A stretch of 45,508 nucleotides of DNA, taken from a virus. Made by a program: the position numbers and the translations under genes. Below are positions 28,115 through 35,964 of this stretch, in pieces. Location of the stretch: positions 1 through 45,508 of the IMG/VR virus record IMGVR_UViG_3300031565_000079; one strand, given 5' to 3'. Each line of letters begins with the position of its first letter. The stretch's first letter is position 1. The notes beneath the pieces were generated by a model. That model saw nothing but the letters and a program-made list of their open reading frames with translations, was not told where the DNA came from and did not search any database.

Positions 28115-28978
28115 TTATATTGAACTTTCAGCAGTGTAAGTCATATCAGCCCAGAATAATTCTTTAGGTTTAATGACTCTGCTTCCCCAGACATGTAATC
28201 CTCTGATAGCATCAGCAAATCTGGTCTCTAATCTGAGAACTTCGCTTTCTATTATCTGTTGTACGAATGCAATCGAATCATAACTTCCTGCCATAATAGC
28301 GTTATGTTTAGTTCCAGCAAGTGCAACACATCTGTTAGACTGGTACATATCGAAATTTAAGACGTTTCCTACGAAACCATTTTTAAGTTCACCTTTTAAA
28401 TCTTGAGCCTTGAGGATTCCAGCAAGTAATAATTTCAAAATAACCCAAGATGGAAGAACTATCCATTTCTTTTCGACATTTACAAGTTCTAATGCATCCC
28501 ATAATTCACCGATAACACTAGTAACGGTACTTGTATCCACAGTTGTGTCAGTTACATAAGCAGCACCAGTAGCAGTTTGGTCATATAAACTTGCTATAAA
28601 GGTATCAACCTTTTTATCTAAACCATATCCAGCTTTGTTGGCATAATCGGTCATGTGATTAATGTCAGACTGTTTTTCCTTGATGTCTCCCATAGAAATA
28701 CCATAGTAGTATGCCTTATCGACATCCAAGAAAATAGCTGAATCTTTGGGTGCTTCGTAGGTAACAGCGGGGGTAGCAGTATCATCGTATTCGTTGATGG
28801 TTACTTCTCCGAGTCCTCTGATAACAACTCTTGAACCCTTTTGCTTTATTTCGCCTTCATATTCTTTGGTAGCAATTTTTCCAAAAACTAATTTATCCTC
28901 AATTACCGTTAATATTTTAGCAGCGAAAATAATAGGGATAGTATCTCTTACCGCAGCATTACCAAAATTAATAGCCAT
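28115..28978 (-). CDS. Major capsid protein
   Basis: Track ORF of 287 aa with RBS aaggagttgaaaataaATG. Its position after portal and scaffold supports the call, as does the N-terminus NFGNAAVRD...ATKEYEGEIKQKGSRVVIR, which resembles podovirus-type HK97-fold coat proteins as I recall them. Confidence 0.7.
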   Translation of the reverse strand: MAINFGNAAVRDTIPIIFAAKILTVIEDKLVFGKIATKEYEGEIKQKGSRVVIRGLGEVTINEYDDTATPAVTYEAPKDSAIFLDVDKAYYYGISMGDIKEKQSDINHMTDYANKAGYGLDKKVDTFIASLYDQTATGAAYVTDTTVDTSTVTSVIGELWDALELVNVEKKWIVLPSWVILKLLLAGILKAQDLKGELKNGFVGNVLNFDMYQSNRCVALAGTKHNAIMAGSYDSIAFVQQIIESEVLRLETRFADAIRGLHVWGSRVIKPKELFWADMTYTAESSI

Positions 28979-29838: not shown

Positions 29839-30117
29839 TCAGTGTTTTTTTTCATGAAGTTCTCTATGACAATTTGTACAGAGAAGATCACACTTATCCA
29901 TTTCTTCTTTAATTTTCTTTAATCCCCAAGTACCAGTAACCATACGTGCAATACTAAATTCTTTATCTCCGTTATGATGAAATTCTAAAGCAGTAGCACA
30001 TTTGTTATAACCACAAATTGCACAACCTTTTGATAATTTGTAATTTTGAACATATCGACGATTTCTTTCTTGATATTTTTCACGCTGTTTTTTTCTATAA
30101 GTAATTGCATTAAACAT
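29839..30117 (-). CDS. Small HNH endonuclease
   Basis: Track ORF of 92 aa containing CAICGYNKCATALEFHHNGDK...LLCTNCHRELH. Confidence 0.75.
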   Translation of the reverse strand: MFNAITYRKKQREKYQERNRRYVQNYKLSKGCAICGYNKCATALEFHHNGDKEFSIARMVTGTWGLKKIKEEMDKCDLLCTNCHRELHEKKH

Positions 30118-30119
30118 TT

Positions 30120-31934
30120 TTATACTGCCCTACCTATCATTGATTGATTTTTAGGCGGGCTTGGTTTTCCTTTTGCTTGTTGTCGTGCTGGTTGCTGTTC
30201 TTCTTGAGCAACCCTTTGAGCCTCTTCTCTGATTCGTTGAACGATTTCTTCTTTATTCGGAATATCCGAATTTTCAATAATCACATCTATGGGGATGGGG
30301 AGTCCACTTTGGGCTAAATTCATCAGCACTTCCAGATTAGCCATCCGAATTGTCGGCATATTTGGCATTTGCTCGACCTTAAATCCGTAATGACCAACTG
30401 CCCATGATTTCATTGCTTTATAAAGTTGTGCAATATCAATTTTTTGTTTTTCTTCCTGCATTATTTGGGCGACTTCGGCTGGTGAATAGACATTAGAATG
30501 TCTAATCATTTCAATTAATGTCTCTCCAAAAATCCTTTGAGAAACCCTAAAATTATCGTAAACTGGTTCAGAGATGGTTGCCCCTGCCTTTTGTCTTCGT
30601 AGAATAGCAATTCCCGAATCAGTCCTTTTGTCTCCTTGACCCATGATGTCAGGATTAAGACCTGAAATCTTTTTAATGTTCGATTCTTCATCTTGTTTCA
30701 GAATGAAGAGTCCTTGAGGAAAGTCATTTGGTTTGATTTTCTCTGGTGGTATATTCGAGTAGGTAATCATAACCCCAGGCTTTGAACCTTCCTCTTTTAT
30801 AAGTTCTATAGCATTTTTTTCTTTCTCATTAACAACCCAGCCTGTATTGGCTGTATGATTGATAATATGAAGCATTTGGGAAGTTCTTTTGTTAATTTCT
30901 CTTTGCGGATCTTTAAGACCCTCAACCACTCCGAAGACCACTCCATCAAACCAATAAGGAGAAAATCTTTGTAAAGGGAATAAAGTCATTCCATGATAAG
31001 GATCTTCGATATCTTCTAAAATCATGTCCCCTAACATAGTAGTTACATGTAAGACCTCGATTATATGTTCCTTAACGGAAAGTCTTGGTCGTCTTCCCTC
31101 ACTCTCAGCTAATCTTCGTTCTTTTTCTAAGACTACTTTTACTACTTCCTTTTGAGAATCATGGACAGGACTAAAACTCATACTAGCTCCATTGATTAGG
31201 TATAATTGTTTTTTATAACTCTTCCACCAAACCTCTTTAATACGATAACTATATTGCGAAGGATCTCTGTCTTCCTTATCTGATTTTTTAACGAGTTTAC
31301 CGGTGCGATCCGTCATGTCTTCATCCTGGGGATCACCTGTATATGCTTCTATCTCTGCCTCGTGTTTACTCCAGAGAAGCTTAATATGTTCCTTGTCTCC
31401 CCAGTAACATTCCCAAATATATTTTGCAGATTCATTTAAGTCATATCTATTGGTATTTGGATCTTCATAAACATCAAAAGGAGATATTCTTGACATAACA
31501 AGGTCTCCGTTTATTTTGTCTTTTTTAAAACTGATGTCAGTTTTTACCCAACCTTTTCCCGATATGATGCCATCTACAAACTGCATAGATTGTTCGATTT
31601 CACCATGACATATATCTACAGAATGTTTGGCTAAAGAGGTAAAGGCATCTGCAATAATCCTCATTCCACCTTTTCTCGGAAAGGCTTTTACATCAGCTCT
31701 ATTCTGTCTTTCCATTCCAGATAAAAGATTGATGATGGGTAGAACGTGATTAATTGTGAGACAAGGTTTTTCCTCTTCTTCTAGTAAAGCCCTATCTTGT
31801 GCAGTCCACTGGTCATTACATACAAATTCATAGTTCTCAATAGCCTCTCTTCGCCAGATTCGATGTCCCTTTTTCGCTTCTTTCCAGAATTCGGCTAACT
31901 TAGCTTCCTGATTTGTCTTATTTTCTTTGTCCAT
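30120..31934 (-). CDS. Portal protein
   Basis: Track ORF of 604 aa. Size and position fit (after terL, before scaffold and capsid). It has the N-terminal segment NYEFVCNDQWTAQDRALLEEEEKPCLTINHVLPIINLLSGMERQNR and an acidic/basic C-terminal tail. Confidence 0.75.
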   Translation of the reverse strand: MDKENKTNQEAKLAEFWKEAKKGHRIWRREAIENYEFVCNDQWTAQDRALLEEEEKPCLTINHVLPIINLLSGMERQNRADVKAFPRKGGMRIIADAFTSLAKHSVDICHGEIEQSMQFVDGIISGKGWVKTDISFKKDKINGDLVMSRISPFDVYEDPNTNRYDLNESAKYIWECYWGDKEHIKLLWSKHEAEIEAYTGDPQDEDMTDRTGKLVKKSDKEDRDPSQYSYRIKEVWWKSYKKQLYLINGASMSFSPVHDSQKEVVKVVLEKERRLAESEGRRPRLSVKEHIIEVLHVTTMLGDMILEDIEDPYHGMTLFPLQRFSPYWFDGVVFGVVEGLKDPQREINKRTSQMLHIINHTANTGWVVNEKEKNAIELIKEEGSKPGVMITYSNIPPEKIKPNDFPQGLFILKQDEESNIKKISGLNPDIMGQGDKRTDSGIAILRRQKAGATISEPVYDNFRVSQRIFGETLIEMIRHSNVYSPAEVAQIMQEEKQKIDIAQLYKAMKSWAVGHYGFKVEQMPNMPTIRMANLEVLMNLAQSGLPIPIDVIIENSDIPNKEEIVQRIREEAQRVAQEEQQPARQQAKGKPSPPKNQSMIGRAV

Positions 31935-31943
31935 TTTTCCTCC

Positions 31944-31981
31944 AAATAAAAAAAGCCCTGATAACTTTCGTTACCAGAGCT
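31944..31981 (-). terminator. Strong Rho-independent terminator abutting the portal RBS
   Basis: The minus strand reads AGCTCTGGTAAC-GAAA-GTTATCAGGGCT followed by TTTTTTATTT and then GGAGGaaaaATG. The 12-bp stem has two G-U pairs that exist only on the minus strand, and the loop is a GNRA tetraloop. Confidence 0.85.
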
Positions 31982-32330
31982 TCTAAAGAGTAGTCCCATA
32001 TGGGCTTCTTTCGAGCAGTCTCTATTAATTATTTATTCTTTTTGTGATAATCTAACCCGCCCAAAGCTATCACCAGCATCTCAGCCAAATTTTACGTCTT
32101 TCGACAACTGAGGCTTCCACCTTTGGGGATATAGACCCTAAACTCTTACTGGCTTACATCCAGCTTACTGCACCGATGGAACAGGAGTTTGAATAGGACT
32201 TACCTATACCCCTTGAATAAAGGGTTTGCCTAGGACTTAAACAGCACCCTCGGACTGTCAGGGTTACTATACACTTGGTATAGCACCCGTTATCACCACC
32301 TTGCCTACATTCGTAGTTGGAGTGGTTCTT
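31982..32330 (-). ncRNA. Unclassified structured non-coding RNA candidate (about 350 nt) between the terL-linked small ORFs and the portal gene
   Basis: No ORF of 60 codons or more on any frame. The region is visibly more GC-rich than its surroundings. Many local helices are present (CTATAC/GTATAG, CCCTT/AAGGG, GTC-GAAA-GAC, GTGATA/TATCAC, GCTGG/CCAGT with G-U). It ends at the terminator above. Confidence 0.5.
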
Positions 32331-32537
32331 TTAAATACTTTTATAACTATCTTTAAGTATAATTATTTGTTCATAAAGAAAATCTATAGGCATACCACTC
32401 ATATAACATTTTTTAATCAATTCTATTACTTGAGAAAAAATATTATCTGCAATATCATTTTTCAACTCTTCAATGAATATTGTTCTTTTATTTGCATTAC
32501 GAAGAGCTAATCCTACACCTGTAATATTTTCTTTCAT
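32331..32537 (-). CDS. Hypothetical protein (68 aa)
   Basis: Track ORF with RBS taagggggaagatATG. It is very AT-rich. Confidence 0.55.
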   Translation of the reverse strand: MKENITGVGLALRNANKRTIFIEELKNDIADNIFSQVIELIKKCYMSGMPIDFLYEQIIILKDSYKSI

Positions 32538-32547
32538 ATCTTCCCCC

Positions 32548-32754
32548 TTATTTATATATTACTATTTCTATTTTCTTAAAGCCAGTTAGACCACCAAGAC
32601 AAAAGTCCATTGTTATATTCCCAGTAAAGTCAGGACTTTCCTCGAATATATGCCTTAATTGATTATTTATTTTTTCTAAAGTTTTGTCAATTTTAGTCAA
32701 CAATACGCCTCCTATATTATACAGAGAATAAATTTGGTCGTCAAGGTAACTCAT
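32548..32754 (-). CDS. Hypothetical protein (68 aa), translationally coupled to terL
   Basis: Track ORF whose ATG overlaps the terL stop codon (ATGA). Confidence 0.55.
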   Translation of the reverse strand: MSYLDDQIYSLYNIGGVLLTKIDKTLEKINNQLRHIFEESPDFTGNITMDFCLGGLTGFKKIEIVIYK

Positions 32755-34164
32755 GCAGTCATATAACTACGCCTTTTTGTTTTCCGTCCAAAAGTATGAA
32801 TAGTTACGTGTTCCTCGGTTGCGAATTGCAAGCTCCAAAGCCCCATGATATACGCATCTCCATGGTCTGGGGATTTCCCTAAATTCTTTGGTAATTTCAT
32901 TTCGGCTTTAGGTTGGATGATTAATTGGTCTCCGTTAAATTTATATTTATAAGCATTGAGTTCCCTCTCAAGGTCTTCATCCACAAAAGTTAATTCTATT
33001 TCACTATTTCCAAACATTTCCCCAGCAAGCCATGTAGCTTCTGCTCGCCTGTTGTAGAAGCATTCGGGAACACCCGATTTCTGTCTTTCAGCACCATTAA
33101 ACTCTATGATATTACATTTCCAATTCCACTTTTGAGAATGCTGTCGCAGGATAGAAGCCACACCAGCACCACAACCTATAACATCAACCACAATCACAGA
33201 AGGTAAAAATGAAAAAGCCATTGTTTCAGCTTCTTCGGCAATATGAACTTCGTCTTGATGACCGAAAATCTTGGCTTTCATTATATCGGTATTCTTCATA
33301 GCATAGATGACAGTCTCATCATCACCGAAGCGTGCAGGGTCAATAGTTATGACTTTTCTTACAGGTTTGTGAAACTTCATCTCGTAAGCTCTTTTAATCC
33401 AAGAAAGTTGAATAACCAAGTCAGCCCCAGCCATAACATCCCAACATCCGTCTCTATAAGCCTTTAGTAAGACCGGTCTGTTTCTTAAAACATATTCCAT
33501 TCTTGGTACATAATCTTCTGGTAAGTAATTATTATCCGATGGTAAAGCAGGTAAATAGACTCTCCCATTTTTATTCTTGTTATTAACAAACGCTTCTTTT
33601 AAATAGCAATCTCTCGGATTAGCGGAATAAACATATTTATAAGGGAGGGCTTCTCCGTTGATAGTCAATCTACAAGCAAGTTTAAGTTCAACTAATTTAT
33701 CTTCTTCTATCTCTTCCGCTTGATCAAGACAAAAGAATGCTATTTCAAAAGAATTAAATTTCTGTACTACTTTCTTATTATCGAGTCCCCCGTAGTGGAT
33801 TTTGAGGCGTTTATTTACAATGATTTCCTTATTTTTGGCATTTATAGTATAAACACTTTCAGGAATGAATCTTTTCCATGATTCTAAAGTGGTATCATCG
33901 AAGTCAACGCCCTGAAGCCTCCCAAGAAACCCGATAGGTATTGGGTTTCTTAAGGGTGGAATATTGAATCTTTTTATAATCATATCGCAGTAAAGCCAAG
34001 CATATCTGCATAAGAGTACGCTTTTGTCAACCTCCCCCCTTGGCTCCACCGTATAAAAGTTCTTTGGTATATGTCTGATTCAATAACCAAAGAGCAAGTA
34101 ATTGTTTATCAGTCCATTCGATTCGATACTTCTGTTGTACAAAATCAAAGCTATTTGGATTCAT
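32751..34164 (-). CDS. terL: Terminase large subunit, encoded in two overlapping frames (N-terminal 45 codons at 34027-34164, remainder at 32751-34049); needs a +1 shift or contains a 1-nt indel
   Basis: Frame A, translated by hand, gives [45 protein letters not shown] followed by TGA, which is the start of a Walker A motif. Frame B (track ORF) continues ...[11 protein letters not shown] and contains Walker [11 protein letters not shown] and a C-terminal nuclease-like region. The frame A ATG overlaps the HNH stop codon (ATGA). Confidence 0.8.
34027..34041 (-). other. Candidate +1 recoding site AAG GGG GGA GGU UGA C (or a G6 homopolymer indel)
   Basis: The C6 run at 34034-34039 and the TGA at 34027-34029 were read base by base. 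Frame B is +1 relative to frame A. Confidence 0.6.
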
Positions 34165-34670
34165 AAGAGGGGATAATCACCACCTTTCCTTATTTTTTCT
34201 ATAAATTCTCTTGATATCTTTCCAGCAATATCCTTATGTTCTTTCAACCATAAGTCAATTAAATATTTCTCCAAACAACAATGTTCAGATTGTGTTATAA
34301 GTAACAAATTTTCTATCCTATTATCGGTTTTAATACCATTGATATGGTGAACAACCTCTTTAGAATCTAATTCTCTACCTAAATACTTTTCCATCACTGC
34401 ACGATGTTCCAGTATGGTTTTGTTAGCAGATTTCCAAAGCAACATATACCCATCAATAGTCTTTCTTCTTCCGCCTTTCCAACTGGGATTTTGATTTCCA
34501 GGAAATCTCCATATTAAGTTTATACTACTGTCTCTACGAGGAATATTGAATTTTATCATCCATCTCCATATAGTTTTAAGATGCACTCCACACAATTTAG
34601 CAATTTGGACTAAACCCAATTTTTCGTTCCAATATTTGTTATACAACCATTCCCTGTTTTGATAATTCAT
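34161..34670 (-). CDS. HNH homing-type endonuclease with an N-terminal HTH, immediately upstream of terL
   Basis: Track ORF of 169 aa containing WKGGRRK...[40 protein letters not shown]. It is a paralog of ORF 3912-4280. Confidence 0.8.
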
Positions 34671-35833: not shown

Positions 35834-35964
35834 GTTTGTGTATTTGCCGTGTGTTTGTAAACTATGGTTAGCAAAATGTGTAATAATATGCCGAGTTAGG
35901 TTTGCAATATGTGATGGAAAGTTGCTACATTGGGAATGCAATATTATTCACTACATTAATAATT

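Follow-up and report, generated by a model that had tools for sequence, protein, structure and literature searches.

The leader described here lies between the gene for the large terminase (terL) and the portal gene in a viral DNA of 45,508 nt, IMG/VR record IMGVR_UViG_3300031565_000079 (positions 1 to 45,508), which was analysed at its full length and is referred to below as the window. All genes of the window are on the minus strand; the portal protein matches phrog_156 at 7e-86, and the gene context includes a major head protein (28115-28978), a possible small terminase, a methyltransferase and a spanin. An initial annotation had read positions 31944-32330 as one highly structured RNA of roughly 350 nt, free of open reading frames (ORFs) and ending in a strong terminator that touches the portal ribosome-binding site. 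Comparison with related phages indicates that the leader is not one such RNA but a set of swappable structured-RNA modules followed by a conserved terminator/antiterminator switch of about 80 nt. This switch, module E, probably gates expression of the phage structural genes.

The leader region is intergenic, between complete ORFs. On the minus strand, no ORF of 30 aa or more is present from the stop of a 68-aa ORF (32331) to the portal ATG (31934), with the exception of a 34-aa frame that overlaps the terminator. The raised GC content and the strong folding described in the initial annotation were both borne out: GC is 0.43-0.47 across 32000-32300, against 0.24-0.30 where the small ORFs lie just upstream and about 0.38 for the portal gene, and the 401-nt minus strand folds at -126 kcal/mol (z = -3.52, with none of 100 shuffles as good), compared with z = -0.93 for the plus strand. 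Many pairs of the terminator are U-G, which become A-C mismatches on the other strand, so that these pairs work on the sense strand only. The terminator hairpin, which had been given as 12 bp with a GNRA cap, is indeed present, but its core has 11 pairs, or 15 if the flanking A-U pairs are counted. Its run of seven U residues ends 4 nt before the GGAGG of the portal gene, leaving no space for a promoter between the two.

For comparison, portal relatives were collected from IMG/VR and, with a portal profile, from JGI metagenomes, and a few more contigs were found in ENA through the small 50-aa protein encoded in the leader. The resulting set comprises 44 distinct versions of the locus from related uncultivated phages (individual contigs are cited by L numbers), and those that carry the leader have portal identities of 50-90%. 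The alignments hold 7-32 sequences, and one of them (module B, 10 sequences) was fitted to a covariance model. The pattern AGAGACTGCTCN{2,5}GAAG proved too loose in IMG/VR, with about 120 chance loci; nhmmer retained one new true match, L048. The 401 nt had no blastn match among 50,697 phage records, and no portal of a cultured phage is more than about 26% identical to that of the window; the lineage is an uncultivated one. No prophage relative was found with the portal profile in genome_contigs. With Rfam 15 at gathering score, tRNA-Trp was the only match in the window, and a permissive scan of 31850-32450 gave best matches of E >= 0.08, all implausible. Neither a group I intron nor a small self-cleaving ribozyme was matched there at E <= 10, in keeping with the initial annotation, which had recognised no such consensus by eye.

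A sigma-70-type promoter follows terL (Table 1) and is the best promoter-like site within 29.5-36.5 kb. Of 38 distinct relatives, 34 have a TTGAC[AG]-17-TATAAT-like site scoring at least 10/12 ahead of the small ORF. The relative L154 (portal 51% identical) is without the small ORF, cargo, E and terminator at this place (540-610), and its promoter, TTGACA-17-TATTAA, sits 17 nt before the portal ribosome-binding site. The conserved site, together with the L154 promoter directly ahead of the portal gene, indicates that 32744-32716 is the portal-operon promoter, and that in the window the terminator stands between this promoter and the portal gene. L154 set against the other relatives thus provides a natural 'no-leader' control, an on-off comparison. 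The initial annotation had allowed for a promoter that it could not see; one exists, but upstream of the leader and not downstream of the terminator.

The first gene behind this promoter had been read as a 68-aa ORF (32548-32754) coupled to terL. Homologues found elsewhere by gene callers are exactly 50 aa, so the longer reading is probably an over-extension; the ORF begins at TTG 32700 and has a GGAGG site and a promoter of its own, both of which lie within what had been read as the N-terminal part. All relatives with module E have this ORF. The AlphaFold2 model of the 50-aa protein is a helix plus a beta-hairpin (predicted local distance difference test score 82), and the protein has no Pfam or PHROG family and no PDB neighbour at E < 1. 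Its family is tiny, with 24 clusters at E <= 0.001 among 1.84 billion representatives.

Table 1. Features of the leader between terL and the portal gene, in order of transcription
Feature	Position	Strand	Remarks
Sigma-70-type promoter, TTGACG-17 nt-TATAAT	32716..32744	(-)	Right after the terL stop codon; 11/12 matches
Conserved 50-aa ORF, TTG start behind GGAGG, ..ENPDFTG..FCLGGL..	32548..32700	(-)	First gene of the leader transcript
Cargo ORF, 68 aa	32331..32537	(-)	Variable cassette; absent from L137, an unrelated 39-aa ORF instead in L002
Module B, two stem-loop domains (one with a nested hairpin) and an H-type pseudoknot	32211..32332	(-)	Covariance model R2, 142 bits, 10 members
Module X, branched long hairpin closed by GGGGUAUAG/CUAUAUCCCC	32125..32212	(-)	Folds alone at -29.3 kcal/mol, z = -3.2
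Module G, two helices and a conserved loop CUUUGGGCGGGUUAGA	32038..32126	(-)	Covariance model R1, 105 bits, 8 members
A/T-rich junction AAUAAAUAAUUAAU	32024..32037	(-)	Degenerate copy of AAAAUUAAAUAG, with which the 50-aa ORF ends in most relatives
Rod (antiterminator) of module E, AGAG-A-CU-GC-UC-G-AAAGA-AG-[CCC AUAU GGG]-ACUAC-UCUUU-A-GAAG-CUCU	31976..32023	(-)	Covariation
Intrinsic terminator, GCUCUGGUAAC-GAAA-GUUAUCAGGGC then UUUUUUUAUUU	31944..31980	(-)	Terminator scan; hairpin 31980-31955
Portal ribosome-binding site GGAGG (31943-31939) and start codon (31934-31932)	31932..31943	(-)	Sequence

A common frame is kept in the leader-bearing relatives, consisting of terL, the promoter, the 50-aa ORF, a variable stretch, module E (about 80-110 nt, ending in the terminator) and the portal gene. 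The variable stretch between the stop of the ORF and E measures 0-867 nt and occurs in 44 distinct arrangements. The non-coding part of the window is made up of modules B, X, G and E, of which only E is found in all leader-bearing relatives. In the closest relative, L137, B is joined directly to G, without X and without the 68-aa cargo ORF; L138 has the order G, another RNA module, an ORF and then B, and order or combination differs again in L143, L169 and L193. A single functional RNA of about 350 nt, whether packaging-associated in the manner of phi29 or one large regulatory leader, would suit the position between terL and portal and the strong folding of the full-length sense strand. Against it, for each of B, X and G, most relatives that keep terL, portal and E lack the module, have it in another order or have something else in its place, with the last 80 nt or so alone always present and the other 290 nt or so being exchangeable cargo RNAs; B occurs at a different locus as well, and Rfam gave no match to a packaging RNA. 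We regard this reading of the initial annotation as hardly tenable, and would caution that a leader of this kind is not to be annotated as one 'large structured RNA'. A packaging site at the DNA level (pac or cos) was rejected on account of the U-G pairs confined to the sense strand and of the variable content.

The cargo of the variable stretch is of several kinds. The 68-aa cargo ORF of the window has an N-terminal RNANKR motif that recurs in the cargo ORFs of L170 and L189. Elsewhere the cargo includes a tRNA-Met(CAU) (L141, about 2294-2368), an abiF RNA motif (RF03085; L144, 1018-1054, 48.5 bits against a gathering score of 37) in a variable region that holds no abiF gene, a manA-like RNA (L005, 422-625) whose 28.2 bits lie below the RF01745 gathering score of 55.2, HNH endonuclease genes, assorted small ORFs and several more structured-looking modules. 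The window itself has no match to the manA (RF01745) or abiF (RF03085) RNA models. The leaders of L153 and L136 contain long tRNA-like sequences with a GGUUCGAAUCC T-arm that were not called by ARAGORN. HNH genes flank the terL-portal pair of the window on the minus strand (34161-34670 and 29839-30117), and related HNH genes are leader cargo in L144, L169, L170 and L189; these genes may contribute to the mobility of the cassettes.

In cargo-bearing relatives a second copy of the last 9-13 nt of the ORF (AAAAUUAAAUAG; ATTAAATA[GA]) is found just before E or before the hairpin that precedes E, so that the cargo is bracketed by a direct repeat. This boundary is a 12-nt A/T-rich repeat without a promoter or hairpin, and related phages would exchange cargo modules at it.

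The helices of three of the four modules keep their pairing in relatives through compensatory changes. In the pseudoknot of B, a GAGGGU loop pairs with ACCCUU. Among 8 sequences of B, 98% of the pairs are formed and 7 are changed on both sides; in the alignment of 10 sequences, whose fitting to the model favours structure, 97.7% of cells are paired and 14 of 24 pairs are double-changed, with no shuffle reaching any of the measures. Module B is common to L002, L137, L177, L138, L141 and L004, with more distant copies in L193 and L153. In the IMG/VR contig L192 it lies outside the terL-portal locus, with an 80-nt tRNA-like element immediately on its 5' side, and B is therefore a module that moves from one expression site to another. 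An exact-pattern scan for B gave matches confined to this phage group and none in genome_contigs. Module B also contains a palindrome, CCUAGG or CCUAUAGG, through which two copies could dimerise loop to loop.

Module G shows compensatory changes in 7 of 22 predicted pairs among 7 sequences and is common to L137, L141, L138, L143, L169, L170 and L189; an exact-pattern scan for it in IMG/VR gave no match. A possible pseudoknot between its 5' GGAAGC and the loop GCUUU conflicts with a supported helix. No homologue of X was found among the relatives, and this insert is known in the present phage only. Its UAAGUCCUAUUCAAACUCC (32194-32176) is close to the UAAGUCCUAGGCAAACCC of B (32238-32221), which suggests that X arose partly by duplication of the 3' part of B. 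None of B, X and G has an Rfam match at gathering or permissive thresholds, and we take B and G, from their covariation, to be new structured-RNA families absent from Rfam. That such RNAs are stable products in their own right, as the initial annotation had proposed for the whole stretch, is plausible for the cargo modules.

Module E can form two structures. In the rod, AGAG-A-CU-(GC)-UC pairs with GAAG-CUCU and AAAGA with UCUUU, below an apical hairpin; the 5' arm of the terminator (31980-31976) overlaps the 3' strand of this rod, and the two are mutually exclusive because both use nucleotides 31979-31976. The initial annotation had suspected a riboswitch-like decision, and an alternative pairing of this kind is supported by covariation of AGAG (32023-32020) with CUCU (31979-31976) in the terminator 5' arm, while the terminator stem covaries too. 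Changes in the tetranucleotide at the start of E are matched by changes at bases 2-5 of this arm: AGAG goes with CUCU in most sequences, AAGG with CCUU in eight, and GAGG with CCUC and AGGG with CCCU in one each; a short variant of E has AGGG facing CUCU, with one wobble pair. The closing helix AGAG:CUCU has 93% of cells paired and four of five pairs double-changed, which none of 500 shuffles reaches, and its two variable inner pairs are without any unpaired cell. Shifting the partner by one column lowers pairing to 31-57%. The terminator stem is 95.5% paired in 32 relatives, with 6 of 9 pairs covarying and many U-G, and the rod in 21 relatives has 16 pairs that are 89% paired and of which 11 are double-changed (0 of 500 shuffles). 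When the terminator 3' arm is left out, the rod with its four tetranucleotide pairs is the minimum-energy fold of 18 of 23 E cores; the other five have a frame-shifted closing helix. The anatomy of the leader, its mosaic composition, the conserved promoter and the covariation of both competing helices are what the sequences show.

An internal CUCU (31988-31985) was considered as the partner of AGAG and is less likely, as it pairs with AAAGA in a covarying helix and is nearly constant while AGAG changes. The core of the short E variant (AGGGACCACCUGnAACCCAGAAG) is tandemly duplicated in L176 (95-170) and also in L185, L181, L156 and L164, the second copy alone being attached to a terminator.

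The layout of E, with a closing helix that shares a strand with the terminator, is like that of ON-type transcriptional riboswitches, and its unpaired nucleotides are highly conserved across the whole range of portal identities. E might accordingly be a small-molecule riboswitch in which the internal loops of the rod (GAC-UGCUC / GAAG and AG / ACYAC) bind a metabolite, stabilise the closing helix and turn the structural genes on. This is improbable, however, given that no Rfam aptamer matches, that the rod is a nearly continuous duplex with little space for a pocket, that the short variant retains only about 19 nt between AGGG and GAAGCUCU, and that the element is limited to one phage clade. 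A conserved 5' segment followed by a hairpin and a terminator with a U-tail is also the layout typical of small RNAs derived from 3' untranslated regions. E and the terminator could on this basis be released from the leader 3' end as a trans-acting small RNA, with single-stranded AGAGACUGCUC, largely free in the terminator state, as the seed for a host or phage mRNA. The complement of AGAGACUGCUC has 11 matches in the window (<= 2 mismatches) against 6.3 expected, which is not better than chance, and none is at a start codon; moreover, the covariation of AGAG with CUCU in cis would be needless for a trans seed. We judge a trans-acting role to be highly improbable.

In the reading that we favour, and to which we attach moderate confidence, the leader transcript carries accessory RNAs and E decides on read-through into the portal and head genes. 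The region would then make up the last two-thirds, on the 3' side, of a leader transcription unit that separates the portal gene from the promoter of its operon. The transcript of this unit would encode the 50-aa protein, continue through a cargo bay with the 68-aa ORF and modules B, X and G, and end in E. The rod would close first, co-transcriptionally, as AGAG-A-CU..UC pairs with GAAG-CUCU. If it persists, only a short upper stem of the terminator could form, 5 nt from the U-tract, and the polymerase would read on into the portal and head genes; if the terminator 3' arm displaces it, transcription would stop 4 nt before the portal ribosome-binding site and an abundant, cargo-carrying leader RNA would be released. 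The cargo modules would be accessory RNAs that profit from early, strong expression.

The calculated energies bear on what such a switch would require. For the whole element of the window, the values are -29.0 kcal/mol in the terminator state and -19.1 kcal/mol in the rod state; the terminator hairpin alone also comes to -19.1 kcal/mol. With some 10 kcal/mol in favour of the terminator, a factor that holds the rod in place is probably required for read-through. The 50-aa protein may be the nearest candidate, though a different protein, of phage or host origin, or a small ligand could serve as well; the 50-aa protein is the obvious one because it is always present with E, which is the one point in its favour. 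Among the genes of the window there was no recognisable phage RNA polymerase and no known antiterminator. What we infer here is which way the switch works, that a factor is needed and which one it is, and what the cargo does.

The same energy difference would also fit a fixed, partial terminator, under which abundant leader RNA and the scarcer mRNA of the portal operon would be made in a constant ratio. The rod would then be a stabilising or processing structure, for instance a site of the RNase III type at which the leader is trimmed or the portal mRNA receives its 5' end. The processing sites of phages for RNase III, such as those of T7, are irregular bulged duplexes, and the rod, an irregular bulged duplex of 18 pairs, has this general shape; no effector was identified in the Pfam and PDB searches with the 50-aa protein. 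A processing hairpin, however, needs no four nucleotides from the terminator arm, and the strict Watson-Crick covariation of AGAG with CUCU, where the terminator partner tolerates wobble, points to a selected competition. A fixed terminator is in our judgement possible but unlikely.

Several points weigh against a switch. At equilibrium the terminator wins overwhelmingly, which could leave the rod without any importance in vivo. Few independent events may lie behind the AAGG/CCUU variants, the alignments are small and one was model-fitted, and all relatives are metagenomic contigs. The 50-aa protein has no recognisable RNA-binding fold and its role is a guess. Furthermore, in several relatives the ORF stop abuts AGAG, which hints at ribosome-mediated control: in nine arrangements (L162, L010 and L163 among them) the stop lies about 0-12 nt before AGAG. 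Where it touches AGAG, a terminating ribosome could mask the 5' strand of the rod, as in leader-peptide attenuation, and this may be the ancestral mode. For the window itself leader-peptide attenuation was rejected, as 308 nt separate AGAG (32023) from the nearest upstream stop (32331).

About 4 kb upstream of the leader the window has a second cluster of non-coding RNA. On the minus strand there is an 80-nt tRNA-like element (36271-36192), whose acceptor stem of 7 bp contains G3:U70 and which also has a T-arm GGAGUUCGAUAUCC and an encoded CCA. At its 5' end it is similar to transfer-messenger RNA (tmRNA), without a tag ORF. It was missed by ARAGORN and by Rfam (best match tmRNA_permuted, 15.5 bits, E 0.44), and may represent a domain of a mini tmRNA-like or alanine-accepting kind. 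The copy in L192 is 83% identical and is the one with module B directly after it. Between the element and tRNA-Trp (36039-35965) lie about 150 nt (36191-36040) that are GC-rich and ORF-free, with several predicted hairpins (-42.9 kcal/mol). Downstream of tRNA-Trp, at 35896-35944, the short direct repeat TT[AG]GG[TA][TA]TGCAATAT occurs twice, 34 nt apart, and similar ATATTGCAAA-type repeats are found in L192; these could be operator or origin-like sites.

Among known systems, the proposed switch resembles in layout the ON-type attenuators such as the pbuE adenine riboswitch and the ribonucleic antiterminator (RAT) elements bound by BglG, SacY and LicT. Both have an intrinsic terminator directly before the regulated gene, a competing helix that takes the terminator 5' arm as its 3' strand, and compensatory changes that keep both helices. 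In contrast to these, the leader contains no known aptamer or RAT sequence by Rfam searches and is served by no CAT/PRD protein, the predicted fold of the adjacent 50-aa protein being unrelated; it also stands in a phage structural operon and tolerates 0-867 nt of cargo just upstream. The late genes of phage lambda are gated by a constitutive promoter, pR', a short 6S RNA ending at tR' and Q-dependent read-through. A strong sigma-70 promoter, a short terminated transcript and morphogenesis genes just past the terminator are common to both cases, whereas the leader described here encodes a protein, carries variable structured RNAs and contains an antiterminator that overlaps the terminator, and no Q-like gene was identified in the window. 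A cis-acting RNA upstream of the terminator is the mark of processive antitermination (HK022 put, lambda nut); in the leader E alone is always present, it overlaps the terminator and does not act at a distance, and no resemblance to boxA or boxB was seen by eye. If the switch works as proposed, it would be a compact and undescribed RNA device through which one host-type promoter serves both an early leader RNA and a late structural operon.

The cargo bay invites comparison with the hyperplastic regions and promoter early stem-loop (PeSL) cassettes of T4-type phages (PMC2839356, PMC4122927). Variable content between conserved flanks and a short repeated boundary motif at the junctions are shared features. 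The boundary of PeSL cassettes is an early promoter plus stem-loop, whereas here it is the A/T-rich repeat that forms the end of the 50-aa ORF, and much of the cargo consists of non-coding structured RNA rather than ORFs. The bay shows that phages can gather and swap non-coding structured RNAs at a dedicated expression site, as they do small accessory genes.

Phage-borne structured RNAs and decoys include ROOL and GOLLD (PMC12286853) and pseudo-ToxI (PMC3475682), manA RNAs assemble into cages in vitro (bioRxiv 10.64898/2026.07.01.735769), and the abiF motif RNA neutralises the AbiF toxin by direct binding (PMC12373285). Like the leader cargo, these are structured RNAs of unknown or anti-defence function that often lie beside tRNAs, and relatives of the leader carry an abiF motif, a manA-like RNA and a tRNA; B, X and G of the window, in contrast, match none of the ROOL, GOLLD, manA, pseudo-ToxI and abiF families. 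As abiF RNA neutralises AbiF and the motif in L144 is without its gene, a counter-defence role of that cassette is plausible, and by extension from it a similar role of B, X and G is conceivable. More speculatively, the whole leader might be an RNA anti-defence island, whose structured RNAs, made by the strong promoter within the first minutes of infection, act as decoys or antitoxin mimics against RNA-partnered or tRNA-depleting defences, with the E switch as a timer that later gives the structural genes access to this promoter. We hold this to be doubtful; were it true, B and G would be the first members of new phage RNA counter-defence families. At least two covariation-supported families absent from Rfam (B and G) are in any case available for study, and the orphan abiF motif of a relative makes RNA counter-defence testable. 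Set beside these systems, the attenuator principle is known, and the E motif, its placement and the RNA-cargo bay are new.

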